This document shows, piece after piece, positions 8,927-60,205 of a stretch of 64,000 nucleotides of DNA. This DNA comes from an uncultured Eubacteriales bacterium (lineage in GTDB: Bacteria > Bacillota > Clostridia > Christensenellales > CAG-138): the NCBI GenBank assembly GCA_900542615.1, contig UQOG01000002.1, positions 11,718 through 75,717 of the forward strand. Direction: 5' to 3'. The notes under the pieces are model-generated. The model was not told the DNA's origin, searched no databases, and saw only the letters and a list, made by a program, of their open reading frames with translations. Numbering within the stretch: position 1 is the stretch's first letter; each line of letters begins with the position of its first letter. Both the position numbers and the translations under genes were made by a program.

Positions 8927-9319
8927 ATGACGGTATTCAAGCTGGCAGGGCTTGCGTTGATCGCCCTTTGCGGGGCGGTGCTGCTGCGGGCCTACAAGCC
9001 GGAGATGGGCTTGCAATTGAGCATTGCCGCCTGCTTTTTGCTGCTCAGCTACGCCCTTACGGACATCGCCGCCATACGCCAGGCGGTGGAAGGGGTGACC
9101 AGCCGGTTCGGCTTGGGGGTGGAGCAGCTCAAGCTGGCGTTCAAGGTGCTGGGGATCGCCTATGTGGCCCAGTTTGCCGCGGAGGCCTGTAGGGACGCAG
9201 GGGAGAGCGCCATCGCCTCTAAGGTGGAATTGGCGGGCCGGGTGATGATCGTGGCGGCGGCGCTGCCGGCGCTGTTGGCGGTGCTGGAGCTGCTGCGGGG
9301 CCTGCTGGAGGGCGTATGA
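8927..9319 (+). CDS. spoIIIAD: stage III sporulation protein AD
   Basis: About 130-aa four-TM protein containing KVLGIAYVAQFAAEACRDAGESAIASKVELAGRV. ATG 8927; the track start, TTG 8921, is the alternative. Confidence 0.9.
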   Translation: MTVFKLAGLALIALCGAVLLRAYKPEMGLQLSIAACFLLLSYALTDIAAIRQAVEGVTSRFGLGVEQLKLAFKVLGIAYVAQFAAEACRDAGESAIASKVELAGRVMIVAAALPALLAVLELLRGLLEGV

Positions 9320-10464
9320 AAAAAGGCGTATGGCTGGTTTTGGCGTTGGCGCTGCTTTGGCCCTGCAAGGCCATGGCCCTGGAGGCGGAGCTGGAAAGCG
9401 TCCTGGACGCTACCCAGGCCCAATATGATCTGTCCGCCTGGGAGGAACGCTATGGCAGGCTGCCTGAACAGGTACAGGAATTGTGGGGACACGGGGATGT
9501 CAACAGCCTGATCGCCGGCTTTGCCCGGGGCGAGGGCGTGGAAGCAAAGGGCCTGTTGGAGGGGCTGTGGGAGACGGTAAAGGCCACCATCGCCCAGGGG
9601 CTTGGCTCCCTGGCCTCCATTTTGGGCATCGCCCTGCTGACCGGCCTGTTGGACGCCCTTCTGGGGGAAAAGCAAACCAATGTGAAGGAGATCGCCTCCT
9701 TCCTATGCTACGGCGTATGCGTTATGCTCCTTAGCGCCCTGTTGACCGATCAGCTGTCCATGACCGTAGGGGCTATCCAGGAGCTGTGCGGGCTGTTGGA
9801 GACGGTCTCCCCCCTGCTGGTCACCCTGCTGGCCGCCATTGGGGCCACGGCGTCGGCGGGGATGGTGCAGCCTATGTTCGTGCTGCTCAGCGGCACCGTA
9901 GCCAAGGTGGTCCAGGGGGTGTTGCTCCCCGGGGTCATGGGGGCGGGGGTATTGTATATTGTGGGGGCCTTGGCGGGCCGGGAACAGGTGAGCCACCTGG
10001 CGAATACCATCAAGTCCTTCGTCAAGTGGGCCATGGGAGGGATCACCACCATTTTCCTGGGGGCCATGGCCCTGGGGGGGATGAGCGCCGGCGGGGTGGA
10101 CAGCATCAGCTTCCGCACCATGAAGTATACCCTGGATAAATCCCTGCCCCTGGTTGGCGGGGTGGTGGCGGGAAGCCTGGACAGCGTGCGGGGCTGTACC
10201 ATCCTGATCAAGAACGCCGCAGGCATGGCGGGGGTGGTGATGGCCCTGGGTGTGGTGCTGATGCCCTTGCTCCAATTGATGGGCATGAGCCTTGCCTTTC
10301 AGTTGACCGGCGCCCTATGCGCCCAGGTGTCCGACAGCCGGATGCCCAAGATGTTGGCCGGGATGGCGGACATTTGCAGGTATATGTTTGCCTGTGCCGG
10401 CATGGTGGCCCTGATGTTCGTGCTGACCATGGGGCTGGTGGTGGCATTGGGCAGCGGAGGATAG
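9316..10464 (+). CDS. spoIIIAE: stage III sporulation protein AE
   Basis: 382 aa with a signal peptide (MKKGVWLVLALALLWPCKAMA) and multiple TM helices. ATGA overlap with spoIIIAD. Confidence 0.9.
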   Translation: MKKGVWLVLALALLWPCKAMALEAELESVLDATQAQYDLSAWEERYGRLPEQVQELWGHGDVNSLIAGFARGEGVEAKGLLEGLWETVKATIAQGLGSLASILGIALLTGLLDALLGEKQTNVKEIASFLCYGVCVMLLSALLTDQLSMTVGAIQELCGLLETVSPLLVTLLAAIGATASAGMVQPMFVLLSGTVAKVVQGVLLPGVMGAGVLYIVGALAGREQVSHLANTIKSFVKWAMGGITTIFLGAMALGGMSAGGVDSISFRTMKYTLDKSLPLVGGVVAGSLDSVRGCTILIKNAAGMAGVVMALGVVLMPLLQLMGMSLAFQLTGALCAQVSDSRMPKMLAGMADICRYMFACAGMVALMFVLTMGLVVALGSGG

Positions 10465-46127: not shown

Positions 46128-47669
46128 CTAGAGTAGGGGGGCGAACAAGCGGAGCACTTGCTGGGTGATCCGGTAGAAGAACCCGCCCTTGCACTCTTCC
46201 AGGCGCACCAGATGGCATTTTTGCAGGATATTCAGATAGTCCGCCTTGATGTCTTGGATGCAAGGGCAATCATACAGCAGGCACCCGCATTCAAAATGCA
46301 GATACAGGCTGCGATAATCCATATTGACGCTACCCACGGAGGCGATGCTGTCATCGGAAACGGACACCTTTGCGTGCATGAATCCCGGCGTAAATTCATA
46401 AATGCGCACCCCGGCTTCGATCAGCTCCGGATAATAGGAACGGGTGGTTTGATGGACGGGGGGTTTATCCGGGATGTAGGGGGTAATGATCCGCACATCC
46501 ACGCCGCTTTTGGCGGCCAGGGTTAGGGCCCGCATCAGGATATCGTCTATGATAAGGTAGGGCGTGGCGATATACACATAGTCCTGGGCGGACTGGATGA
46601 TACGAAGATAGGCGCTATGGCCGGTAAGCTCCTGGTCCATGGGGCTGTCCGCATAGGGCTGGACAATGCCCTGGCTGTCCTGGGAGAGAGGGGGAAGGTC
46701 CGTAGGATACAGGCTTAGCACCGAGCTGAGGTCCAGCTCTTCCCAATAATCCCACAGCTGCAAAAACATCAGCGTAAAGCTCCAGGCAGCCTTCCCTTGA
46801 AGGCATAGAGCAGCATCCTGCCAATAGCCGTGCTTTTCATAGGCGTTGATATATTCATCCGCCAGGTTTGCGCCTCCTGTAAACGCCACTTTGCCGTCGA
46901 TCACCAGGATCTTGCGGTGGTCCCGCTGGTTTTGCACTGAGGACAGGAAGGGCTGGAAGGGATGAAACTTGCGGCATTGAATGCCTTTGGCTTCCAGGGT
47001 TTTATGGTAGTTGGAGGGCAGAGTCAAAAAGCAGCCCACATCGTCGTACATGATCCGCACGTCCACGCCTTCTTTGGCTTTACGCTCCAGGATCTCCAAT
47101 ACGGAATTCCACATGGTGCCTTCTTCGATGATGAAGAATTCCAGGAAGATGTATTTTTCGGCTTTTTCCAGCTCCGGCAGGAGCCGGGAGAAAAATACCT
47201 GGCCAGGGCTTAGGTATTCGCTTTGGGTATGGTCGTAAGCAGGGTAGCCGCAGGTGCCGTGCATATATTTGAGCAAAGGGCTGTACTTTCCCACGTTTCC
47301 GGAAAAGGCCATGCCGGATTCCGCGTTGGGCAGGTAGAAAATAGGCCGCAATACATCCCGACGCCTGGCCAAAAGCTTGCGCACATAATTGGTGCCCCTT
47401 TGCAGGCTATATAAAAGGTAGAGCAATCCGCCCACGATGGGTACCAGCAGAATCAAAAACACCCATGTTAATTTGGCGTTGGGGTCCCCTTGCTTGGAAA
47501 TGATATGGAGCACTGTGCCGATGCTGATCACGGTCAACAAGCCCCGGAGGACTTCCGAGGTGGCGGAGGTACTGCTGATCAGGTAAAACAAAAAACCCGC
47601 CTGTAACAGGATTAAGATGGTCACAAAAAGCCTGCGTCGTACCAGGGCGCGTTTCCATTTCTGCTTCAT
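46128..47669 (-). CDS. cls: cardiolipin synthase
   Basis: Two N-terminal TM helices and two PLD HKD motifs (HRKILVIDGKVAFTGGANL and MHAKVSVSDDSIASVGSVNMD). Start set to ATG 47669 (MKQKWKR) with a GGGGAG SD. Confidence 0.88.
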   Translation of the reverse strand: MKQKWKRALVRRRLFVTILILLQAGFLFYLISSTSATSEVLRGLLTVISIGTVLHIISKQGDPNAKLTWVFLILLVPIVGGLLYLLYSLQRGTNYVRKLLARRRDVLRPIFYLPNAESGMAFSGNVGKYSPLLKYMHGTCGYPAYDHTQSEYLSPGQVFFSRLLPELEKAEKYIFLEFFIIEEGTMWNSVLEILERKAKEGVDVRIMYDDVGCFLTLPSNYHKTLEAKGIQCRKFHPFQPFLSSVQNQRDHRKILVIDGKVAFTGGANLADEYINAYEKHGYWQDAALCLQGKAAWSFTLMFLQLWDYWEELDLSSVLSLYPTDLPPLSQDSQGIVQPYADSPMDQELTGHSAYLRIIQSAQDYVYIATPYLIIDDILMRALTLAAKSGVDVRIITPYIPDKPPVHQTTRSYYPELIEAGVRIYEFTPGFMHAKVSVSDDSIASVGSVNMDYRSLYLHFECGCLLYDCPCIQDIKADYLNILQKCHLVRLEECKGGFFYRITQQVLRLFAPLL

Positions 47670-47742
47670 GCATCTCCCCAAGCTCCATGCGTTCATTTTG
47701 GCGCAGCGATTCGCCGCCCTTGCACAAGCCTTGATACAAATC

Positions 47743-47771
47743 ATTATAGCAGAAGAACAGCCTGCTGCCTA
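47743..47771 (-). promoter_or_regulatory. extended -10 promoter candidate for cls
   Basis: On the minus strand: TAGGCA, a 17-nt spacer, then TATAAT with a TG extension (TGCTATAAT), about 75 nt upstream of ATG 47669. Confidence 0.5.
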
Positions 47772-47807
47772 GCGTTTCCAGGACGCGGGCTATTCCCGGC
47801 CCATTTT

Positions 47808-47833
47808 GCGAAAACAGGACTGTCTCGTCCTGT
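47808..47833 (-). terminator. orphan minus-strand hairpin with short T-tract upstream of the cls promoter
   Basis: On the minus strand: ACAGGAC-gagaca-GTCCTGT, followed by TTTCGCAAAA. No annotated minus-strand gene lies upstream of it. Confidence 0.35.
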
Positions 47834-48216
47834 AGAAATAAGCCCTTCGGGAGAGCCACGTTAGGGAACCCCCTTAAGAAAGGGCGGAGAAAGGACGCTG
47901 CAAAAGGAACACAGGCATACTGGGACGCCACCTTGCCGTTGTGGAGGATGCCCAGCCGGCGTGCGCCCCCCGGTTCATGCGACGATAAATGGCCCTGTGT
48001 CAATCCGGCTCAACCGAAGCGACGGCGTTTACAGGCAGGCCGAACAAAACGGCGAGCCAAGGCTGTTAAACGCAGCGCATTTCTTATGGCGCCGCTCCTT
48101 TATGGACGGCGCCGTAAGAAAACCATTTGAATGGATCGGCAAAGGCATGGATTTCCGCTGTGCAACGGGGCGGGGAACGGCCTTTGACATAAATCGATCC
48201 GTTTGATATTTTAGCC

Positions 48217-48245
48217 TTGACAATCGAATAAGAAAATGGTAAGAT
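48217..48245 (+). promoter_or_regulatory. sigma-A-type promoter of tRNA-Pro
   Basis: TTGACA (48217..48222), a 17-nt spacer, then TAAGAT (48240..48245), 20 nt upstream of the tRNA 5' end. Confidence 0.55.
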
Positions 48246-48265
48246 TATCATCGTTCGAGTGAGAT

Positions 48266-48342
48266 CTGGGTGTGGCGCAGTTTGGTAGCGTGCTTGAATG
48301 GGGTTCAAGAGGCCGGAGGTTCAAATCCTCTCACCCAGACCA
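48266..48342 (+). tRNA. tRNA-Pro (anticodon GGG)
   Basis: Cloverleaf folded by hand. Acceptor CTGGGTG/CACCCAG, D-arm GCGC..GCGT, anticodon stem CTTGA/TCAAG with loop A-U-GGG-G-U, T-arm GGAGG-TTCAAAT-CCTCT, and an encoded 3' CCA. Confidence 0.9.
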
Positions 48343-48344
48343 AA

Positions 48345-48369
48345 ACAGGATCCGGTGGGTCCTGTTTTT
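48345..48369 (+). terminator. rho-independent terminator after tRNA-Pro
   Basis: ACAGGA(T)CC-ggtg-GG(G)TCCTGT, followed by TTTTT. Confidence 0.6.
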
Positions 48370-48505
48370 ATTTTGCTTGCAGGTTGTTCGAAGGCTGGGT
48401 CCGATTGCGGCCAAACATAAATCAACGGGAAACGCATAAATTTTTACTTGCCTTTTTCAGGAAAGATGCTACCCTTGTATTCGAAGGGAAAGAAAGGGAA
48501 CCCGT

Positions 48506-49267
48506 ATGGATTATGATATGCTTGTGAATTTGGCCATGGAAATGGGCTGTACCCTTATGGCCAGCGGCGCGGAAATATACCGAGTGGAGGAATCCCTAAA
48601 CCGGCTTCTGGCAGCCTATGGCCGGCAGGACGCTCAGGTGTTCGCCATCCCCAGCTGCCTGATCGTCAGCTTGCAGGGGGAGGGCGGCCGTTCGGTGACC
48701 CGTATGTCCAGGATCCCGGCCCATGGGACGGATATCGAGCTCTTGGAACGGTGCAACGATCTATGCCGGCGCCTGTGCCAGCAGACGCCGCCCCTGGAAG
48801 AGGGGATCGCATCGGTGGATGCTTTGCGCATAGGCGCAAGGCGGTATCGGCCCATGCAGACCCTGTTCGGCTATGCGTTGGCCCCGGCTTCCTTTACCGC
48901 CCTGTTTGGCGGGGATCTGTGGGATAGCTTATGCGCGTTCCTATGCGGCGGCCTGGTGGGCTTGTGCTTGCAGGGGGGCGTAAAGTGGATGGGCCGCAAT
49001 GTGTTTTTGCGGACCGTGGTATGCAGCGGGATCGCTGCGCTGCTTGCCTTGCTGCTATTCAACCTGGGCCTGGGCAACAATGTGGACCTGATCACCATCG
49101 GTACGTTGATGCTGTTGGTGCCGGGTGTCGCCATAACCAATTCCATGTGGGAGCTGGTGGCGGGGGATACCTATTCCGGCCTGAGCCGGATGGCAGAGGC
49201 GATTTTGGTGGCCACTGCCATTGCGCTGGGAGCAGCGGCCGGGCTGGGGCTTGGACAGCTGCTTTAG
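48506..49267 (+). CDS. ThrE-family (DUF1212) threonine/serine exporter, large subunit
   Basis: Contains LAMEMGCTLMASGAEIYRVEESLNRLLAAYG and five C-terminal TM helices. 253 aa. Confidence 0.8.
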   Translation: MDYDMLVNLAMEMGCTLMASGAEIYRVEESLNRLLAAYGRQDAQVFAIPSCLIVSLQGEGGRSVTRMSRIPAHGTDIELLERCNDLCRRLCQQTPPLEEGIASVDALRIGARRYRPMQTLFGYALAPASFTALFGGDLWDSLCAFLCGGLVGLCLQGGVKWMGRNVFLRTVVCSGIAALLALLLFNLGLGNNVDLITIGTLMLLVPGVAITNSMWELVAGDTYSGLSRMAEAILVATAIALGAAAGLGLGQLL

Positions 49268-49285
49268 AAGCAAAGGAGGCGCTTG

Positions 49286-49747
49286 ATGGTTACCGGTCTG
49301 CTGGAGCTTTGCCAGCGTTTTATCCTGCCGTGTTTTTATGCCTTTTCCGCCTGCGTTGGCTTTACCCTGATCTTTAACGTTCACGGAAAGGGCAAGGTGA
49401 TCTGCGGGCTGGGAGGCGCCCTGGGATGGTTGGTCTATCTCCTGGTGGGGGAAAGCATCCTGGGGGCTTTTGTAGCTGCCCTGAGCATTGGGTTCTACTC
49501 GGAGATTATGGCCAGGCTTCGCCGTTACCCGGTGACAGGCTACCTTTTGATTTCCCTGTTGCCCCTGGTACCGGGGGGCGGCATTTATTACGCCATGCGC
49601 TACTGCGTGCTGGGGGATACGATGCTGTTTTTATCTACCCTACTGCACACCTTTGGCGTTGCCGCAGCCCTGGCAATAGGCGGGACCTTGTCATCCACCC
49701 TGTTCCGCAACGTCATCCTGCGGGCTTTGCCCCACAGAGGCGGATAG
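49286..49747 (+). CDS. ThrE-family (DUF3815) exporter, small subunit
   Basis: About 150-aa four-to-five-TM protein adjacent to the DUF1212 partner. ATG 49286 lies 6 nt after an AAAGGAGG SD. Confidence 0.8.
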   Translation: MVTGLLELCQRFILPCFYAFSACVGFTLIFNVHGKGKVICGLGGALGWLVYLLVGESILGAFVAALSIGFYSEIMARLRRYPVTGYLLISLLPLVPGGGIYYAMRYCVLGDTMLFLSTLLHTFGVAAALAIGGTLSSTLFRNVILRALPHRGG

Positions 49748-49874
49748 GGGGATGCAAGTTTCGGAAGGGGGAAACGGATGCAGGGAAGGTGTTCATTATT
49801 TAAGGAACGATCTGTTGGTTTCGTGTTTACCGCTTACAACCCAGGCGTTAATTTATTTTTTTGCTGAAAAAACA

Positions 49875-49903
49875 TTGACCATCCGATCGTAACATGATAT
49901 AAC
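49875..49903 (+). promoter_or_regulatory. sigma-A-type promoter (extended -10) of the atp operon
   Basis: TTGACC (49875..49880), a 17-nt spacer ending in TG-A, then TATAAC (49898..49903). Confidence 0.55.
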
Positions 49904-49959
49904 GAAAAATGTATTTTTGCCCTTGCGCCTTGGTTTGCAGGGCAAACGGAGGGATTATC

Positions 49960-50223
49960 ATGCTGGGCGCGGCCTTGGGCGGAATAACGGGAGGCATACA
50001 GCTGTATCTGCTGATACTGGTTGCGGCCTCGGTAGAACAATGCAGTGTCAAAATATGGCCGCTGGTGGTGCAGTTCTTTTGCCCGATGATCGGCCTTGGC
50101 CTGTGCGCCATCCTATGGCGCAGCCAGATCTTACACTGTGCAATCGCCATGTCCGGGGTGCTCCTGGTGGGGGCTTTGGTAAAATGTATTGGTGTGCGCA
50201 GGAGAAAGAAGGATAGGGAATGA
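49960..50223 (+). CDS. small membrane protein, AtpI/AtpZ-like by position
   Basis: 87 aa with two to three hydrophobic helices and a basic tail (RRRKKDRE). First ORF of the atp operon. AACGGAGGG SD before ATG 49960 and an ATGA overlap with atpB. Confidence 0.45.
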   Translation: MLGAALGGITGGIQLYLLILVAASVEQCSVKIWPLVVQFFCPMIGLGLCAILWRSQILHCAIAMSGVLLVGALVKCIGVRRRKKDRE

Positions 50224-51101
50224 AATTGCTTGGTGAGTATTGGCTGTTGATCCTGGGCCTGCTAATGGGGATCGGCGGCTGGAGTTGGCGCCGGGCGCTG
50301 GGAAAGGGTGAGATATCCAAAAGCCGGAAAAAGAAAAGGCTTTGGGCTACCATTCTGATGCTGGCAGGCGGCTGGTGCTTTATGGTGCGGCTGTTGCAGC
50401 TGGTGTTCGGCACAAAGGAGGCGGAGGCCTTTTCCGTGAGCATATGGGCGCCCAGGATGCAGCTGGGCGGCATGACCATCAGTTCCACGGTGGTGGTCAC
50501 CTGGGTGGTAATGGGCGTCCTGCTGCTGCTGGCCTTGCTGATCCGCATCTTTGTGATCCCCCATATGACCGACCGGCCCCATGGCGTACAAAACGTATTG
50601 GAGATCGCCGTGGAAGCCCTTTGCAAATATACCAAGAGCAACGTGGGGGACCTGGGGGATAACCTGCCTGCGTATTTGTTCACCGTAGCGGCCTTTATGA
50701 TCGGCTGCGCTTCGGTGGAGCTGATGGGAGTACGGGCGCCTACGGCGGATATCACCATGACCTTTGCCATGGCCCTGATCACCTTTGTGCTGATCAACTA
50801 TTACGGCATACGCAAAAAGGGCGTTTTCGGCCGGATCCGGTCCATGGCCCAGCCTACGCCCGTGGTGTTCCCCATCAAGATCGTTTCGGATTGCGCCGTT
50901 CCGGTATCCATGGCGTGCCGGCTGTTCGGCAACATGCTGGGCGGCATGATCGTAATGGATCTATTGTATTCCGCGTTGGGCAATGCCGCTGTGGGCATCC
51001 CCAGCGTGGTGGGCCTGTATTTCAATGTGTTCCACCCCTTGATTCAGGCGTATATCTTTATTACCCTGACCCTTACCTTTATCCACGAGGCCGTGGAATA
51101 A
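50220..51101 (+). CDS. atpB: F-type ATP synthase Fo subunit a
   Basis: C-terminal core SMACRLFGNMLGGMIVMDLLY...FNVFHPLIQAYIFITLTLTFI carries the essential Arg. The N-terminus has about 55 extra residues with two hydrophobic helices; internal start M55 is possible. Confidence 0.88.
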   Translation: MKLLGEYWLLILGLLMGIGGWSWRRALGKGEISKSRKKKRLWATILMLAGGWCFMVRLLQLVFGTKEAEAFSVSIWAPRMQLGGMTISSTVVVTWVVMGVLLLLALLIRIFVIPHMTDRPHGVQNVLEIAVEALCKYTKSNVGDLGDNLPAYLFTVAAFMIGCASVELMGVRAPTADITMTFAMALITFVLINYYGIRKKGVFGRIRSMAQPTPVVFPIKIVSDCAVPVSMACRLFGNMLGGMIVMDLLYSALGNAAVGIPSVVGLYFNVFHPLIQAYIFITLTLTFIHEAVE

Positions 51102-51143
51102 ACGATTGCTTTGCTACAACGATAAGATATGGAGGATATGACA

Positions 51144-51371
51144 ATGAATACTGGATTGACCGCCATCGCTGCCGCTCTGGCCCTGCTTCCCTGCACCGCT
51201 GCCGGCCTGGCCATGGGCCTTGCCACCGGCAAAGCCGTAGACGCCACCGCCCGTCAGCCGGAAGCTTCCGGAAAGATCAGCTCCACCCTGCTGTTGGGCC
51301 TGGCGCTTACCGAGTCCTGCGCGATTTACGGCTTTGTTTCCGCGCTGATCATTGCGTTTACAATGGCATAA
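51144..51371 (+). CDS. atpE: F-type ATP synthase Fo subunit c
   Basis: Hairpin protein with the loop ARQPE and carboxylate helix [24 protein letters not shown] 51144 lies 7 nt after a GGAGGA SD; the track start is 51129. Confidence 0.88.
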
Positions 51372-51383
51372 GGAGCGATCGCT

Positions 51384-52067
51384 GTGGAATTATACCCCAT
51401 TGATATTGCGATACATTTGCTGAATATTATCGTGCTGTACGTGCTGCTGCGGCTTCTGGTATGGAAGCCGGTGCGCAAGTTTATGGCGGGCCGGGAGGAA
51501 CGGATCCAATCCCAGCTGGACCAGGCGGAAAAGGCCCAGGCGGAAGCCCAGGCCGCCCAGGCGGAATATACGCAAAAGTTGGCCGCTGCCCAGGCGACCT
51601 GCGAGCAGCTCATGGCGGAGGGCCGCAAGCAAGCGGCTGTATCCGGCCAAAAAATATTAGCCCAGGCCCAGGAGGAAGCGGGCCGCATCCTGGAAAAGGC
51701 CCATGCCGACGCCCAGGAGGAAAAGGTGCGGGCCATGGATGACGCAAAGGGCGAGCTGGCCCACCTGGCGGTGGAGCTGGCGGGACGGGTGTTGCGCTTT
51801 GACGAGGAGACCAAGTCCCGCATTGCCCAGGGCCGCAGCGACCGGAAGGGAACGCGGGAGGGCGTGCTGAAAACCGCCCGCCCCCTATCCAGCCAGGAGC
51901 AGGCCCAGGTTACCGCCCAGCTGGAGGAGCTTTTGGGCTGCGGGCTGAAATTGGATTGCCAGGTAGACCCGCAGCTGATTGGCGGATACGCGGCCTACAT
52001 CGGGGGCAACGTATACGATTTCAGCTATGCTTCCCAGCTGGCTGCCATGAAGCAGCAGCTGGCGTAA
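51384..52067 (+). CDS. atpF: F-type ATP synthase subunit b fused to a delta (OSCP) C-terminal domain
   Basis: GTG start after an AAGGAG SD. Residues 1 to about 150 form a b subunit (TM helix plus a long A/E/Q-rich helix). The last ~65 residues (PLSSQEQAQVTAQLEELLG..LKLDCQVDPQLIGGYAAYIGGNVYDFSYASQL) match the delta C-terminal domain. There is no separate atpH. Confidence 0.8.
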   Translation: MELYPIDIAIHLLNIIVLYVLLRLLVWKPVRKFMAGREERIQSQLDQAEKAQAEAQAAQAEYTQKLAAAQATCEQLMAEGRKQAAVSGQKILAQAQEEAGRILEKAHADAQEEKVRAMDDAKGELAHLAVELAGRVLRFDEETKSRIAQGRSDRKGTREGVLKTARPLSSQEQAQVTAQLEELLGCGLKLDCQVDPQLIGGYAAYIGGNVYDFSYASQLAAMKQQLA

Positions 52068-52076
52068 GGGAGACGA

Positions 52077-53588
52077 ATGATGTTACAATTCGATCCGGCC
52101 TCTATGGGGGCCTTTTTAGCAGAAAAGCTTGGGGCCTATGCGCCCCATATGGTCAAATACGAATACGGCACCGTGATCAGCTGCGGGGACGATATCGTGC
52201 GGATCCAGGGGCTTTCCCAAGCCAAATACGGGGAATTGCTGGCCTTTGAAAACGACGTGTACGGCATCGCCCTGGACATGGGGCTGGACGGGGTAAGCGC
52301 CGCGCTTTTAAGCCGGGGCGGCTTTGTGCCGCCGGGCAGCGTAGCCAAGGGAACCGGCAGGGTCGCGGATATTTGCGTTGGTAAGGAGCTGCTGGGTCGG
52401 GTTATCGACCCGTTGGGCAGACCGCTGGATTGCAAGCCCCTGGAGGGGCGTACCTTCCGCAGGCTGGAATCCCCGGCGCCTGCCATCATGGACCGGGCGC
52501 CGGTGGATACCCCTATTGAGACGGGTATTTTGGCCATCGACAGCATGATCCCCATCGGCCGGGGCCAGCGGGAGCTTATCATCGGCGACCGGCAAACGGG
52601 CAAAACCTCCATCGCCCTTGCGGCCATGATGAACCAGCAGAGCTCCAACGTAATATGCGTATACTGCGCCATCGGCCAGAAGGCCTCCAGCGTGGCCAAC
52701 TTGGTGCATACCCTTCAGGAAAAGGGCGCCATGGAGCATACGGTGGTGGTGGCCTCCACCGCTGCGGACAGCGCCGCCATGCAGTATTTAGCCCCCTATG
52801 CCGCCTGCGCGGTAGCGGAGCATTTCATGTATAACGGCCAGGACGCCCTGGTGGTCTACGACGACCTGTCCAAGCACGCGGTGGCCTACCGGGCCATGTC
52901 GCTGCTGCTGCGGCGGCCCTCCGGCCGGGAAGCTTATCCCGGGGACGTTTTTTACCTGCACTCCAGGCTTTTGGAGCGGGCCGCCAGGCTTTGCGAGGAA
53001 AAGGGCGGCGGATCCATGACCGCCCTGCCCATCGTGGAGACCATGGCGGGGGATATCTCCGCCTATATCCCCACCAATGTGATCTCCATTACCGACGGCC
53101 AGATCTACCTGGAGAGCGAGCTGTTCCACGCGGGGGTGCGGCCGGCGGTCAACGTGGGCCTATCCGTATCCCGGGTGGGCCGCAGCGCCCAGCATCCCGC
53201 CATGAAAAAGGTCTCCGGCAACCTGCGCATGGAGGTAGCCCAGTATCGGGATATGGCGGTGTTCGCCCAGTTCGGCGCAGATGTGGACGCGGTTACGAAA
53301 AAGCTTCTGGACCGGGGCGACCGGATGACCGAATTGCTCAAGCAGCCCAAGGAGCAGATCCTGCGGCTTTCCGCCCAGACGGCCCTGCTGCTGGCATTTC
53401 AATGCGATGCGTATAAGGATGTGCCTGTAAAGGACATTTCCCGCTTTGAAGAGGGCCTGCTGGCGCATTTGGATAAAGCTCACGCCACGCTGGTACAGGG
53501 CATCGACAACAGCAAAGACCTGAACGACCACATGAAAGAAGCCCTTCGCAAGGCCATATTGGATTACGCGGAAAGCTGGGAGGCTTAG
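52077..53588 (+). CDS. atpA: F-type ATP synthase F1 alpha subunit
   Basis: 503 aa. P-loop GDRQTGKTSIAL, then LVVYDDLSKHAVAYRAMSLLLRRPSGREAYPGDVFYLHSRLLERA. Confidence 0.93.
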   Translation: MMLQFDPASMGAFLAEKLGAYAPHMVKYEYGTVISCGDDIVRIQGLSQAKYGELLAFENDVYGIALDMGLDGVSAALLSRGGFVPPGSVAKGTGRVADICVGKELLGRVIDPLGRPLDCKPLEGRTFRRLESPAPAIMDRAPVDTPIETGILAIDSMIPIGRGQRELIIGDRQTGKTSIALAAMMNQQSSNVICVYCAIGQKASSVANLVHTLQEKGAMEHTVVVASTAADSAAMQYLAPYAACAVAEHFMYNGQDALVVYDDLSKHAVAYRAMSLLLRRPSGREAYPGDVFYLHSRLLERAARLCEEKGGGSMTALPIVETMAGDISAYIPTNVISITDGQIYLESELFHAGVRPAVNVGLSVSRVGRSAQHPAMKKVSGNLRMEVAQYRDMAVFAQFGADVDAVTKKLLDRGDRMTELLKQPKEQILRLSAQTALLLAFQCDAYKDVPVKDISRFEEGLLAHLDKAHATLVQGIDNSKDLNDHMKEALRKAILDYAESWEA

Positions 53589-56301
<2,713 letters not shown>

Positions 56302-56326
56302 CCCAGCCAACCACAGGGAGGTCACC

Positions 56327-56794
56327 ATGCTCACGATCCCCATCCCCGGTAGAAGCGCCTTGCAGCTTCAGCATATTGTTTTGGACTATAACGGCACCAT
56401 TGCCTTGGATGGGGAACTCATGCCCGGCGTGGAAGATCGGCTGACGCGGCTGGCAGCCGCCGCGACCATTCACATCCTGACAGCGGACACCCACGGCACC
56501 GTGCGGGCCAAATGCGGCCATCTCAACGCCCAGATCCAAACCTTCCCCCAGGAGGGCGCAGCCCTGTGTAAGGCCAGGATCGTCCAGACGCTGGAAGGGG
56601 GCGTATGCTGTATTGGAAACGGCTACAACGACCTGGAAATGCTGCGGGAGGCCCAGCTGGCCATCGGCATCCTGGGGGCCGAGGGCATGTTCCCGGGGTT
56701 GATGGCCCATATGGACGTATTGGTTACCTCGCCTCTGGACGCCCTGGACCTGCTCCTGTACCCTCGGCGGCTCCAGGCTACCCTGCGCAGCTAA
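56327..56794 (+). CDS. small HAD-superfamily protein (soluble P-type-ATPase-like, COG4087-type)
   Basis: Contains VLDYNGTIA (DxxGT-like motif I), ILTADTHGT and IGNGYNDLEML (motif III). 155 aa. GGGAGG SD. Confidence 0.7.
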   Translation: MLTIPIPGRSALQLQHIVLDYNGTIALDGELMPGVEDRLTRLAAAATIHILTADTHGTVRAKCGHLNAQIQTFPQEGAALCKARIVQTLEGGVCCIGNGYNDLEMLREAQLAIGILGAEGMFPGLMAHMDVLVTSPLDALDLLLYPRRLQATLRS

Positions 56795-56836
56795 AAGAAA
56801 AGCACGATTGCCGTGCATTGAAGAATCCATATCGTG

Positions 56837-56887
56837 ATCAGCCGGCCTCGGCGGGGCGTCCCGTCAGGGGCCGGCTGATGTTTTTTT
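56837..56887 (+). terminator. rho-independent terminator closing the atp/HAD transcription unit
   Basis: Stem ATCAGCCGGCC / GGCCGGCTGAT (11 bp) encloses an inner CGGG..CCCG hairpin and is followed by G-T7. Confidence 0.75.
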
Positions 56888-56913
56888 GTACGTTTATCGA
56901 GCATGTTAGGCGG

Positions 56914-57141
56914 CTACGCCTGTTCCAACTGTTCGTCAAAATAGAATAGCTCTTCAAATTTTTTATCCAAGGCGATGCAAAGGGTTAAAGCCAATTTTGC
57001 AGTTGGATTGAATTGTCCTGTCTCAATGGAGCTGATGGTATTTCGAGAAACGCCCACCAACTTCGCCAAAGCTGTTTGGGAAAGCTTTTTTTCCGCTCGG
57101 GCTTCCCTTAATCGGTTGCGCAAGATCAGCGAATCATCCAT
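56914..57141 (-). CDS. small XRE-family helix-turn-helix transcriptional regulator
   Basis: 75 aa: LRNRLREARAEKKLSQTALAKLVGVSRNTISSIETGQFNPTAKLALTLCIAL. Low-GC gene, 6 nt downstream of its partner gene. Confidence 0.85.
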   Translation of the reverse strand: MDDSLILRNRLREARAEKKLSQTALAKLVGVSRNTISSIETGQFNPTAKLALTLCIALDKKFEELFYFDEQLEQA

Positions 57142-57147
57142 GGCGCA

Positions 57148-57459
57148 TTATCCAAATAATAAAAAGGAAACAAGCCCTATTGTGGCAACGAGGCTGCTGG
57201 CAAGCCCTAAAAACAATATTTTTTTCTTTTTTGCAATCCTGTATTGATACCAAGAAATCCCCGCCAAATAGCCAAAGAGAATGGTGCAATCATCAAAGAA
57301 AGGCTCCCCTTGCATTGCTTTTATTACGGAAAATAAACCGCATAAGCAACAAACCATTGCGCCGCCGAAACCAAAACTGTTGCGCATTTCCTGGCGCTCC
57401 CGCTCATCAAAGTATTGGTTTTCCGCTCTGCTTTTTTCAAGTATCGCTTCTTTTTGCAT
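57148..57459 (-). CDS. small membrane protein, DUF6442-like partner of the XRE regulator
   Basis: Starts MQKEAILEKSRAENQYFDERERQ, followed by three hydrophobic helices. ATG 57459 is preceded by an AGGAGG SD. The N-terminal motif recalls DUF6442 family members, from memory. Confidence 0.65.
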   Translation of the reverse strand: MQKEAILEKSRAENQYFDERERQEMRNSFGFGGAMVCCLCGLFSVIKAMQGEPFFDDCTILFGYLAGISWYQYRIAKKKKILFLGLASSLVATIGLVSFLLFG

Positions 57460-57489
57460 GGTATGCCTCCTAAAACTATGCAAAGTTTT

Positions 57490-57526
57490 CTTGGCATATT
57501 ATATCATTGCCAAGTATACTTTGCAA
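57490..57526 (-). promoter_or_regulatory. strong sigma-A promoter with overlapping palindromic operator for the XRE module
   Basis: On the minus strand: TTGCAA (57526..57521), a 17-nt spacer, then TG-A-TATAAT (-10 at 57503..57498). The inverted repeat CTTGGCA-N11-TGCCAAG (57490..57514) spans the -10 element. Confidence 0.6.
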
Positions 57527-57685
57527 TCTATTCCACAATTGATAAAAGCAGCAAGCTAGATACTGCGGCATTTCAAATCTCTGGAGGAATCCCCCTGAAA
57601 CAAGGCGATCCATGGGGAATTTTGCCCGGCCTCTTTTTTTGAACCCGTAATTGTAGTATAATGCAGAATGGAATGAGAGGTATAT

Positions 57686-60205
57686 ATGGCGAAGAACCAA
57701 AAATCTGCGTCCGGCTCCCAAAGGGGGGCGCAGAAGCAAGCGCTGGAAAAAAATAAAAGGGTCAAGCGGGAGATCACAGGCGTTTTATTGATCGCTTTGG
57801 GCCTGTTCTTGGCCGCCAGCTTATACGTGGATGCGGTGGGCATCGTAGGCCAGGCTGCCAGCCGGGTCTGTTTTGGTTTGTTTGGGATCCTCACCTATGC
57901 GCTTCCCTTGATCGTGATCGCCTTTGGCATCCTGGCCATCGCCTCCTCCACGGGGAATGGGGTGGCAGGCTCTTCTTTGGTGCTGTGTAGCCTGGGGGTG
58001 GTGTGCCTTTTGGTGCTGCTCCATGCCAATGTCCGCAGCGCCACGGACAACATCGGCCTTTGGGATTATTATATGGACGCATATCAGTTCGGCAGCGCCC
58101 TGCAAAAGGGCGGCGGGCTGATTGGTTCCCTGTTGGCATATCCGGCCCTGGTGTTTTTGGGGTTGGTGGGCACCAATATTTTCTTCATCGCCGCGCTGTT
58201 GATCCTCTTTTTGGCCATCACCAAAATTTCCCTGCGGGCAACCGGGGAAAAGGTGGGCAAACAGCTGAAAACCAGCGCATCCAATATGGCGGAGCGGGCG
58301 GAGGAGCGCAAACATAGCCAGCAAAGCCCCTCGGTTTTGGCGGAGAAAATCGACGTAAGCAAGCAAAACCTGTTTACCGAGGTGATGGAGACCGGCGGCC
58401 GCCCCCGTCGAGGCGGGCGGAAAACCGGCATTAAGGTGGAGCGCAGGCCGGTGGAGCAGGATGCCGGCAACCCGCAGCTGGACGATCTGACCTATTTTCC
58501 GGCCAGCGGGACCCTGCCCAGGAAGCCGGAGGAGGATGACGATCCCTTCGATATCCTGGCCGGGGTGGAGGTGCATACAGCCCAGGCGCCCCGCCACAAA
58601 TCCGGCATGACGGTGGGCGATCTGAAGGCCGCCCAGGATGCTTCCCGCAAGGAAAAGCAAGCTCCGCCCAGCCAGTCCCAGGAGGACGAGGATGGGGAGG
58701 ATGCGCCTGTGTTGCCCAACCAGGATGTGGAGGTGCTGGAATACCAGCGCCCGCCTTATACCCTGCTGAACCTGCCGAAGGAACAGTTTGACGGCTTGGA
58801 TAACCCGGCGGAGAACGCGAAACTCCTGATCGACACCCTACAGAGCTTCCATATCTCCGCCAAGATCATCAACATCACTGTGGGGCCCGTGATCACCCGG
58901 TATGAATTGCAGCCCGCCCAAGGGGTGCGGGTCAACCGGATCACCACCCTTTCGGACGATATCGCTTTGGCGCTGGCAGCGCCCCGGGTGCGCATCGAAG
59001 CGCCCATCCCGGGGAAATCCGCCATCGGCATCGAGATCCCCAACCGGGAGACCCAACCCGTGCTGCTCAGAGAAGCGGTGGAGTCTCCGGAATTCCAGCA
59101 GGCCAAGTCCCCCCTGTGCTTTGCCCTGGGTAAGGACATCGCTGGAAAGGTGGTATGCGCGGATCTGGACCGGATGCCCCACCTGCTCATCGCAGGCTCC
59201 ACGGGCAGCGGCAAGAGCGTGTGCATCAACGACATCATTCTGAGCCTGATCTACCATACGGCCCCTTGCGATCTAAGGATGATCCTGGTGGATCCCAAGA
59301 AAGTGGAGCTGAAGGTATATTCGCCCTTGCCCCATTTGCTTTTGCCTGTGGTGACGGATGCGAAAAAGGCGGCGGGCGCTTTGAAATGGGCGGTGCGGGA
59401 GATGGAACAGCGCTATTCCAAGATGTCCCAATGCAACGCCCGGGACCTGAACCGTTACAATTCCCTGCAGGAGGACCCTGCCCACCGGATGCCCCGGCTG
59501 GTGATCATCATCGACGAGCTGGCGGATCTGATGATGGTGGCGGCCAAGGACGTGGAGGAGGCCATCTGCCGGATTGCCCAGCTGGGCCGGGCGGCAGGCA
59601 TCCATTTGATCGTGGCCACCCAGCGGCCCTCCACGGATATCATCACCGGCCTGATCAAGGCCAACATCCCCAGCCGGATCGCCTTGACGGTGTCCTCGGC
59701 GGTGGATTCCAGGGTCATCATGGATTGCAGCGGCGCAGAAAAATTGTTGGGCCGGGGCGATATGCTCTTCCACGCAAACGGGGCCAGCAAGCCCCTGCGG
59801 GCCCAGGCCGCCTTTGTCAGCGACGAGGAGGTGGAGCGGGTTATGGACTTCTTTACGGAGCACGCCACCGCCCCCAGCACCCAATATACGGACCTGTCCC
59901 TGGAGGATATGGAAACCGAGCTGGAAAACGGCGGCCCTGCCCAGGGCAATGGGAAGCAGGAGGACGACCTGCTGCCGGATGCGGTGCGGGTGGTAATGGA
60001 AAGCGGACAGGCTTCCATCTCCATGATCCAGCGCAGGCTGCGGGTGGGATACGCCAGGGCAGCCCGCCTGGTGGACATTATGGAACAGAAGAAGATCGTC
60101 AGCGGGTTTGACGGAAGCAAGCCCCGGCGGCTGCTGATCAGCCAAGCGGAATATGCGGAAATGTTCGGCAACCAAGCGCAAGGGATACAGGAGGATGAAG
60201 AATGA
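57686..60205 (+). CDS. ftsK: DNA translocase FtsK/SpoIIIE
   Basis: 839 aa with four to five N-terminal TM helices, a Pro/Glu-rich linker, a motor domain (Walker A IAGSTGSGKSVCIN, Walker B VIIIDELADLMM) and a C-terminal gamma winged helix. Confidence 0.92.
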   Translation: MAKNQKSASGSQRGAQKQALEKNKRVKREITGVLLIALGLFLAASLYVDAVGIVGQAASRVCFGLFGILTYALPLIVIAFGILAIASSTGNGVAGSSLVLCSLGVVCLLVLLHANVRSATDNIGLWDYYMDAYQFGSALQKGGGLIGSLLAYPALVFLGLVGTNIFFIAALLILFLAITKISLRATGEKVGKQLKTSASNMAERAEERKHSQQSPSVLAEKIDVSKQNLFTEVMETGGRPRRGGRKTGIKVERRPVEQDAGNPQLDDLTYFPASGTLPRKPEEDDDPFDILAGVEVHTAQAPRHKSGMTVGDLKAAQDASRKEKQAPPSQSQEDEDGEDAPVLPNQDVEVLEYQRPPYTLLNLPKEQFDGLDNPAENAKLLIDTLQSFHISAKIINITVGPVITRYELQPAQGVRVNRITTLSDDIALALAAPRVRIEAPIPGKSAIGIEIPNRETQPVLLREAVESPEFQQAKSPLCFALGKDIAGKVVCADLDRMPHLLIAGSTGSGKSVCINDIILSLIYHTAPCDLRMILVDPKKVELKVYSPLPHLLLPVVTDAKKAAGALKWAVREMEQRYSKMSQCNARDLNRYNSLQEDPAHRMPRLVIIIDELADLMMVAAKDVEEAICRIAQLGRAAGIHLIVATQRPSTDIITGLIKANIPSRIALTVSSAVDSRVIMDCSGAEKLLGRGDMLFHANGASKPLRAQAAFVSDEEVERVMDFFTEHATAPSTQYTDLSLEDMETELENGGPAQGNGKQEDDLLPDAVRVVMESGQASISMIQRRLRVGYARAARLVDIMEQKKIVSGFDGSKPRRLLISQAEYAEMFGNQAQGIQEDEE

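Follow-up and report, generated by a model that had tools for sequence, protein, structure and literature searches.

The peripheral stalk, with the delta subunit as its cap, is among the most conserved features of F-type ATP synthases. Of the alpha N-termini in an ordinary enzyme, one holds the C-terminal region of delta and two hold the delta N-domain on the pseudo-three-fold axis (PMC12229609). N-ATPase operons have no atpH, and the C-terminal end of their long atpF product aligns with that of AtpH (PMC2881411, and again in PMC5706428). In the Bacillus PS3 enzyme, delta residues 2-104 were deleted and residues 105-178 were fused to alpha; the engineered enzyme assembled and worked. It could take as many as three stalks along with additional a-subunits, and its H+/ATP ratio was 5.8 compared with 3.0 (PMC12229609). 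That 2025 study showed that removal of the N-domain permits extra stalks and proton channels and doubles H+/ATP, and its authors could name only a few natural delta-C/alpha fusions, including one without the delta N-domain in Acidaminococcus fermentans (PMC12229609). Here we describe a 64,000-nucleotide stretch of contig UQOG01000002.1 from an uncultured Eubacteriales bacterium (the window), in which an ATP synthase operon encodes a b subunit joined in a single polypeptide to delta's C-terminal domain only (b-deltaC). With the delta C-domain on b, this gene would show that nature has reached a stalk without a cap in a second way.

The b-deltaC gene (51384..52067, + strand) begins with GTG and encodes 227 amino acids followed by a stop codon at 52065-52067. 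A GGAG sequence lies about 8 nucleotides upstream of the GTG, directly after the TAA of the c-subunit gene (51369-51371). The original prediction, made from the sequence without database searches, held that the product begins as an Fo b subunit, and profile searches agreed. The ATP-synt_B profile of Pfam (PF00430) matched residues 9-137 with an E-value of 1.9e-25 (89.9 bits, cutoff 28), and the Fo b model TIGR01144 was passed with 77.1 bits (cutoff 65.5). The b portion (residues 1-137; 51384..51794, + strand) is colinear with ordinary b; in the alignment with a typical b subunit of 166 amino acids, it pairs gaplessly with residues 6-137. From the translation, the transmembrane (TM) helix was placed at residues 6-27, IDIAIHLLNIIVLYVLLRLLVW (51399..51464, + strand), within the ATP-synt_B match, and Y4, P5, D7, A9, H11, and N14 in and near this helix are invariant in the b-deltaC family. 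After residue 137, the protein diverges from ordinary b, and the last ~29 residues of the latter are absent. The free C-terminal b segment for non-covalent binding of delta is thus gone, and a hinge and the deltaC domain stand in its place. The hinge comprises residues 138-156, RFDEETKSRIAQGRSDRKG (51795..51851, + strand), with a short predicted helix at 141-149; L137, R138, F139, and D140 are almost invariant, and the remainder of the hinge is more relaxed.

The C-terminal alpha/beta domain (residues 157-227; 51852..52064, + strand) was assigned to the delta/OSCP family by Pfam, Foldseek, and hhalign. The OSCP profile (PF00213) matched residues 151-226 with an E-value of 2e-14 (54.5 bits, cutoff 22.3), and the match covered profile positions 96-172 of 172 only, leaving positions 1-95 unmatched. 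When the tail alone was compared with the NCBIfam delta models, their C-terminal ends only were aligned (e.g., positions 106-172 of TIGR01145), and the TIGR01145 score of 43.7-46.3 bits was below the cutoff of 57.5. In a sequence search of the PDB, solved chains of delta, b-delta, and OSCP matched residues 145-226 through their C-terminal ends, and hhalign paired residues 170-226 with residues 107-164 of a full-length delta from a related locus (L032; loci fetched for comparison carry L-numbers). The residues G200, G201, G208, Y211, D212, F213, S214, Q218, and L219 are invariant in this domain.

An AlphaFold2 model of b-deltaC, built with 56 homologues, had a mean predicted local distance difference test score (pLDDT) of 83.5. 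It consisted of a long helix at residues 5-135, a low-confidence hinge with a pLDDT dip at 132-137, and a beta-alpha-beta-beta-beta-alpha domain at 157-226. All 26 Foldseek matches in the PDB at E <= 0.001 were delta/OSCP chains superposed on their C-terminal domains, with 6rd6_P as one example (root-mean-square deviation [rmsd] 1.7 over 72 columns). Profile and predicted fold together confirmed the original assignment of the tail to the delta/OSCP C-terminal domain and excluded a chance resemblance. In effect, as read from these alignments, the net change is an in-frame removal of the b end together with the first ~95 residues of delta.

The delta N-domain was searched for by tblastn with the full L032 delta and with a hidden Markov model (HMM) of the N-terminal 95 residues, trained on 28 full-length deltas taken from the nearest lineage that keeps delta. 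Neither the six-frame tblastn nor the HMM found a delta N-terminal bundle in the 64-kb window, and none was found in ~0.5 Mb of related loci (~8 kb on each side of the gene) apart from the delta genes of L032 and a second locus, L037. Apart from the tails of b-deltaC proteins, the full-length delta HMM matched nothing except N-terminal parts of the extended alpha subunits described below. Neither the window nor any of 30 related operons yielded an atpH. At the level of the DNA searched, the delta N-domain is absent in cis; the claims that the operon contains no stand-alone atpH and does not encode the N-terminal bundle were both upheld.

A search of 5.8 billion proteins listed 218 b-deltaC homologues, nearly all of 226-228 amino acids, and all 218 carried both PF00430 and PF00213. 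More than 200 of these proteins come from Oscillospiraceae-like Clostridia. Their identity reached down to ~41%, and clustering at 50% gave about five clusters, which makes the family a narrow one; among ordinary b proteins, the nearest were 158-160 amino acids long with 40-44% identity. In public annotation, the fused stalk goes under the name "subunit B". The search of genomes gave 27 loci, of which almost all belonged to gut metagenome-assembled genomes of the Oscillospiraceae-like type, and one further metagenome locus also carried b-deltaC. The closest relative of the window protein was from Candidatus Pelethousia gallinarum (92% identity). The gene was also present in the cultured Chakrabartyella piscis (L028; protein WP_317855560.1), whose complete genome (CP092441.1) and cultivation make stalk number and H+/ATP measurable.

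In the relatives, the locus order was, as far as each contig permitted, small open reading frame (ORF), a, c, b-deltaC, alpha, gamma-beta, and epsilon, and b-deltaC was the sole b gene in each operon. Alpha directly followed the fusion gene in 30 of 30 loci with the 227-amino-acid family, beginning 13-17 nucleotides past it in the relatives, so there is no room for an atpH. The median pairwise ratio of nonsynonymous to synonymous substitution (dN/dS) was 0.28 in the b part and 0.35 in the deltaC domain, and the hinge had 0.70; these values are rough, with synonymous sites probably saturated. The ratios indicate that both domains of b-deltaC are under purifying selection.

The original prediction had proposed a survey of atpF architecture across related Clostridia. 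The survey found a constant length of 226-228 amino acids for the fused form and three stalk designs among the relatives, the more distant of which were reached by following the gamma-beta protein. Group A (L032 and L037) has an ordinary b, a delta of complete or almost complete length (167-176 amino acids), and an alpha of 502-504 amino acids. In L032 (4492-9277), b is 166 amino acids long and delta is full-length, with OSCP positions 4-172 verified and 66% identity to the delta of Blautia schinkii; L037 (3456-8244) has a separate 176-amino-acid delta gene of the OSCP family. Group B is the design of the window, b-deltaC with an alpha of 502-503 amino acids that has no OSCP match and is hence not a deltaC-alpha fusion. 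Group C (L029, L030, L033, L036, and L038) combines a headless b of 161-211 amino acids with an alpha of 583-601 amino acids and the gamma-beta ORF. These deltaC-alpha fusions (L029:293-2089, L030:3892-5697, L033:5157-6941, L036:4207-5982, and L038:4249-6000) match OSCP over their first ~90 residues, at positions 97-172 in the three alphas scanned and by precomputed Pfam assignments in L036 and L038. In a neighbor-joining tree of concatenated alpha and beta, rooted with L032 and thinly sampled (three group C loci), groups B and C were each monophyletic and were sister to one another. Since the gene order is b, delta, alpha, each fusion needs just one deletion and one stop-codon loss. Full delta, b-deltaC, and deltaC-alpha form a ready-made comparative series in related Clostridia.

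Fusions of b to the delta C-terminal domain alone were also encountered elsewhere. Other b + deltaC-only proteins in a representative search were 233-268 amino acids long, and two unrelated ones (L034:7001-7765, 254 amino acids; L035:7001-7702, 233 amino acids) are encoded in nuoLMN-atpQ-a-c-b/deltaC operons, which adjoin complex I genes and contain none for F1. A hydrothermal-vent metagenome is the source of one of the two loci. By their domain content, these proteins indicate that the b + deltaC architecture arose or persisted in other lineages. The earlier statement that b-delta fusions keep a full-length delta was therefore incomplete, being countered by these Fo-only operons, by the N-ATPase b subunit (PMC2881411), and by the natural delta-C/alpha fusions without the N-domain (PMC12229609). 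A literature search found no paper on b-deltaC outside the N-ATPases, which is weak evidence since the search leaves out many subscription journals.

The data are best explained if b-deltaC combines all parts of the peripheral stalk in one polypeptide, in an F-type ATPase of the canonical lineage, and docks on the alpha N-terminal helix, with the cap lost; we consider this reading probable. Two explanations had been offered at the outset, a stator that attaches to alpha3beta3 in a different way or a delta N-domain encoded elsewhere, and the first fits the evidence best. The b part supplies the membrane anchor and the shaft, and the delta-holding end of b is replaced by the hinge and a covalent deltaC head. 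This head would dock on the alpha N-terminal helix, as the delta C-domain ordinarily does on one alpha, so that the b-delta link would be covalent and the delta-alpha link non-covalent. We infer that docking is on the alpha N-terminus and that no delta N-domain takes part in trans. The proposed docking site is the alpha N-terminal helix region, MLQFDPASMGAFLAEKLGAYAPHMVKYEYGTV (52080..52175, + strand). The motif ML(N/Q/D)FDxxSxGAFLKEKL..PEMVSYEYGTV at the alpha N-terminus is strongly conserved across the b-deltaC loci, and this N-terminus is in register with the canonical helix, of which the L032 version is EIISILKEEIKNY.

In its predicted action, b-deltaC appears most like the cap-less stalk engineered in 2025, with the fusion partner swapped. 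The window and the deltaC-alpha enzymes have in common that the N-domain is gone and that the C-domain is covalently tied to a neighboring subunit; the tail superposed on the engineered chain 9jc1_I (PDB 9JC1) with an rmsd of 2.1 over 67 columns and 34% identity. They differ in that the C-domain here is on the C-terminus of b rather than on the N-terminus of alpha, so the covalent and non-covalent interfaces are exchanged and each b of the window carries its own head. If the usual b2 homodimer is assumed, there being one b gene per operon, a stalk would have two heads. There could then be a single stalk whose two heads occupy two of the three alpha N-termini; alternatively, further stalks could bind, as they do in the engineered and the A/V-type enzymes. 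Because the axial cap that limits the enzyme to one stalk would be gone, the crown would be free for both heads of b2 or for more stalks. By analogy with the engineered enzyme, the multi-stalk version is a tentative proposal that we hold to be less likely than not. The operon is a natural candidate for the multi-stalk ATP synthases that so far have only been engineered. If the multi-stalk version is true, the very low ion-motive force that fermentative anaerobes of the gut maintain could be enough for ATP synthesis.

Several points weigh against a cap-less stalk built in this way. In the engineered enzyme, the truncated delta was tethered to alpha, its authors fearing unstable binding, and here the head must bind untethered. 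To our knowledge, no solved F-type structure shows how two heads of a b2 homodimer would be accommodated. The tblastn and HMM searches were of limited sensitivity; the HMM of the N-domain was built from one narrow lineage, and a divergent domain would escape it. Finally, the search for the N-domain covered the window and the related loci, and an atpH or an N-domain may lie elsewhere in the genome.

This last point bears on the strongest rival explanation, in which the delta N-cap, or a complete delta, is encoded elsewhere and joins in trans, and the stalk attaches in the ordinary way. Split ATP synthase gene sets do exist, as the Fo-only operons of the other b-deltaC proteins examined illustrate, with their F1 genes elsewhere, and alpha still has the N-terminal helix to which the delta N-domain normally binds. 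However, no N-domain was found in the 64 kb here or within ~8 kb on either side in the related loci, and in every genome the operon is compact and lacks nothing else. A free N-domain would also be unattached to b: there would be no covalent bond, and no non-covalent contact is known, since delta links through its C-domain. The sister group has lost the same domain, and the engineered enzyme without it is functional (PMC12229609). Joining in trans is, on balance, unlikely.

The N-ATPases resemble the window in two respects, the lack of atpH (PMC2881411) and a long b with delta's C-terminal region at its end, and the best whole-protein E-value was obtained with the N-ATPase b model TIGR03321. 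A laterally transferred N-type ATPase, working as an ATP-driven ion-export pump, would account for these features. The E-value is explained by the composition of the model (246 positions), which also has both halves; the window protein aligns to it with its b half as well as its delta half, and its 83 bits were far under the cutoff of 224.7. The other subunits likewise failed their N-ATPase models, with 586.9 bits (cutoff 750.5) for alpha, 555.6 (752) for beta, 70.3 (282) for gamma, 82.4 (302) for a, and 43.8 (130.9) for c, whereas alpha, beta, gamma, epsilon, and c passed the canonical F-type equivalog cutoffs. The a-c-b-alpha-gamma-beta-epsilon order of the window also differs from that of N-ATPase operons, beta-epsilon-Q-R-a-c-b-alpha-gamma (atpD-C-Q-R-B-E-F-A-G), and AtpQ and the hallmark AtpR are absent, the ORF upstream of subunit a matching neither. 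The tail was closer to a genuine delta (46.3 bits) than to the tail of N-ATPase b (27.4 bits). An N-type pump is therefore very improbable, and b-deltaC looks like a derivation independent of N-ATPase b, more recent and inside the Clostridia.

In the mycobacterial b-delta protein (NF009961, ~445 amino acids; PDB 7JG5 chain d), b and delta are likewise one polypeptide, and the C-domain of the M. smegmatis protein superposed on the window tail with an rmsd of 2.1 over 71 columns and 31% identity. The mycobacterial protein differs in keeping a full delta and, judging by its 445-amino-acid length, a long insert, and in having a separate b chain in solved structures; the window protein scored 55.8 bits against NF009961 (cutoff 328) and is not a member. 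By these model scores, b-deltaC belongs neither to the N-ATPase b family nor to the mycobacterial b-delta family.

An assembly error or a recent in-frame deletion merging atpF and atpH, to which a second oddity of the operon, the missing stop after gamma, could lend an appearance of decay, is scarcely credible given that the same 226-228-amino-acid product occurs in over 200 independent sequences and in isolates with complete or RefSeq genomes, that dN/dS is well below 1 in both domains, that the catalytic motifs are all intact, and that the gamma-beta junction varies yet gains no stop.

The A/V-type subunit E and FliH share with b-deltaC a layout of a long N-terminal helix and a small, globular C-terminal head by which a stalk is fixed to the catalytic hexamer, with no axial cap, and A/V-type enzymes with subunit E carry several stalks. 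A kinship of b plus delta to subunit E was proposed earlier (PMC2881411). Over the whole length of b-deltaC, Foldseek gave weak matches only, to 6xbw_K (E 0.045, probability 0.60, TM-score 0.23) and 5b0o_F (probability 0.51). No match of b-deltaC to an E or FliH sequence family was found in Pfam or NCBIfam, and the likeness is limited to the general layout. In A/V-type enzymes, E pairs with G, whereas the operon has no gene for a G-like partner.

The operon order given by the original prediction, with separate genes for gamma and beta, stood for the I-like ORF, a, c, b/deltaC, alpha, and epsilon. It did not stand for gamma and beta, which form a single ORF of 765 amino acids (53592..55889, + strand), with gamma at residues 1 to ~290 in frame with beta from Met301, so that the order reads I-like, a, c, b/deltaC, alpha, gamma-beta, epsilon. 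The Pfam gamma profile (ATP-synt) matched residues 4-287 and the beta domains matched residues 310-739. No stop codon was present between gamma and beta in the window or in any of the 30 related loci that span the junction, and database ORFs of this fused type, from many assemblies, are 747-831 amino acids long. The junction (residues 282-313; 54435..54530, + strand) never gains a stop despite its variable sequence and length, and AlphaFold2 gave a pLDDT below 50 for residues 278-303. Junction length was 9-19 residues in loci with full delta, 28-39 with b-deltaC, and 36-81 with deltaC-alpha. This comparison of lengths is suggestive of a junction that tracks stalk design, and with few independent lineages it may just reflect phylogeny.

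An internal Shine-Dalgarno sequence, AAGGAGG (54477-54483), precedes an in-frame ATG (54492) at the head of beta (54477..54494, + strand). In most b-deltaC loci (L001-L028), AAGGAGG lies 6-8 nucleotides ahead of an in-frame ATG while the surrounding codons vary; a few have CAGGAGG or GAGGAGG, the beta start codon is TTG in L012 and GTG in L028, and L024 and L031 have no clear equivalent of the internal Shine-Dalgarno sequence and start. In two isolates, RefSeq calls beta from the internal start (WP_317856397.1 and WP_441464857.1). Annotation of the ORF is inconsistent (CP092441.1; NZ_JBQKJT010000012.1, which is L018; and HIR50519.1), with a RefSeq beta of 458-466 amino acids, a GenBank "subunit beta" of 767 amino acids, and a UniRef "Multifunctional fusion protein". 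The conserved internal signal suggests that free beta may also be made by internal initiation, and we infer that each complex would contain one gamma-beta chain and two beta. Should cells make the fused chain, rotor and stator would be covalently joined in a natural enzyme.

In an engineered thermophilic F1 from the Kinosita laboratory, the C-terminus of gamma was joined to the N-terminus of beta by a 15-residue linker, and it rotated at 15.9 revolutions per second compared with 16.2 for the wild type (PMC4052266). Disulfides at the C-terminal end of gamma are tolerated by rotation, since the chain swivels (PMC3536650). The topology of this engineered F1 equals that of the natural ORF, and by analogy, a covalent gamma-beta link need not block rotation. 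The natural ORF differs in having the internal ribosome-binding site and could give one gamma-beta with free beta rather than three fused chains. A natural cap-less F-type enzyme with two or three stalks and a-subunits, with H+/ATP approximately doubled or tripled and with gamma tethered to one beta through a swivelling linker, is a speculative combination that we regard as doubtful. The literature search, with the coverage noted above and hence as weak evidence, found no paper on a natural gamma-beta fusion.

Two further ideas about the gamma-beta ORF were rejected. A programmed frameshift at the junction was considered for the run AAGAAAAAG, which looks slippery and is not conserved in the relatives. 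Loss of the delta N-domain forced by a gamma-beta linker on the crown axis was also discarded as a strict rule; L032 and L037 pair the gamma-beta ORF with an ordinary b and a separate delta, so the gamma-beta fusion is independent of the loss of the N-domain. What is left is a weaker association with junction length, 9-19 residues in the presence of full delta and 28-81 in its absence.

Upstream of subunit a, in the position of atpI, lies a small hydrophobic "I-like" ORF of 104 amino acids (49909..50223, + strand). Nearly all related loci carry it in this upstream position, with 37-85% identity, and no AtpI, AtpQ, AtpR, or other Pfam or NCBIfam match was found for it. Fo subunit a (50220..51101, + strand; 293 amino acids) matched Pfam ATP-synt_A at residues 93-288 with an E-value of 1.5e-38. 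It has an N-terminal extension of ~70-90 residues (50220-50490) with extra hydrophobic segments, which was seen in the b-deltaC and deltaC-alpha groups and was absent in loci with full delta; accordingly, subunit a was 280-300 amino acids long in groups B and C compared with 219-243 in group A.

Fo subunit c (51129..51371, + strand; 80 amino acids) matched Pfam ATP-synt_C with an E-value of 4.5e-14 and TIGR01260 with 50.4 bits (cutoff 43.95). Its helix 2 contains the motif ..ALTESCAIY.. (Glu-Ser ... Tyr), and Met occupies what we take to be the position of the helix-1 Gln ligand in the Na+ site of Ilyobacter. In the deltaC-alpha group, the gene in the c-subunit position is long, encoding 117-154 amino acids versus 71-83 (L030:2432-2896, L033:4188-4541, L036:3216-3599, and L038:3398-3754), and the 154-amino-acid L030 product has no recorded Pfam match.

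The F1 alpha ORF (52077..53588, + strand; 503 amino acids) passed the atpA model TIGR00962 with 680.5 bits (cutoff 484). The original prediction had atpA begin at 52077, 10 nucleotides after b-deltaC; an ATG is present there, but judged from the relatives, the true start is probably the ATG at 52080. F1 epsilon (55882..56301, + strand; 139 amino acids) contains ATP-synt_DE_N and ATP-synt_DE and scored 88 bits with TIGR01216 (cutoff 67.25). In L031, epsilon (9279-9554) is cut to 91 amino acids, without the C-terminal helices. The Walker A motifs, the DELSEED motif, the arginine of the a subunit, and the glutamate of the c subunit are all present in the translations from the window.

Rfam and tRNA scans over 46500-57700 found no RNA family besides one tRNA-Pro. 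The genes around the operon are unrelated to it and encode a ThrE exporter, tRNA-Pro, a HAD hydrolase, a helix-turn-helix (HTH) protein, and FtsK. The tRNA-Pro (GGG) is at 48266-48342; between it and the operon are the ThrE-family genes, upstream of which it lies.

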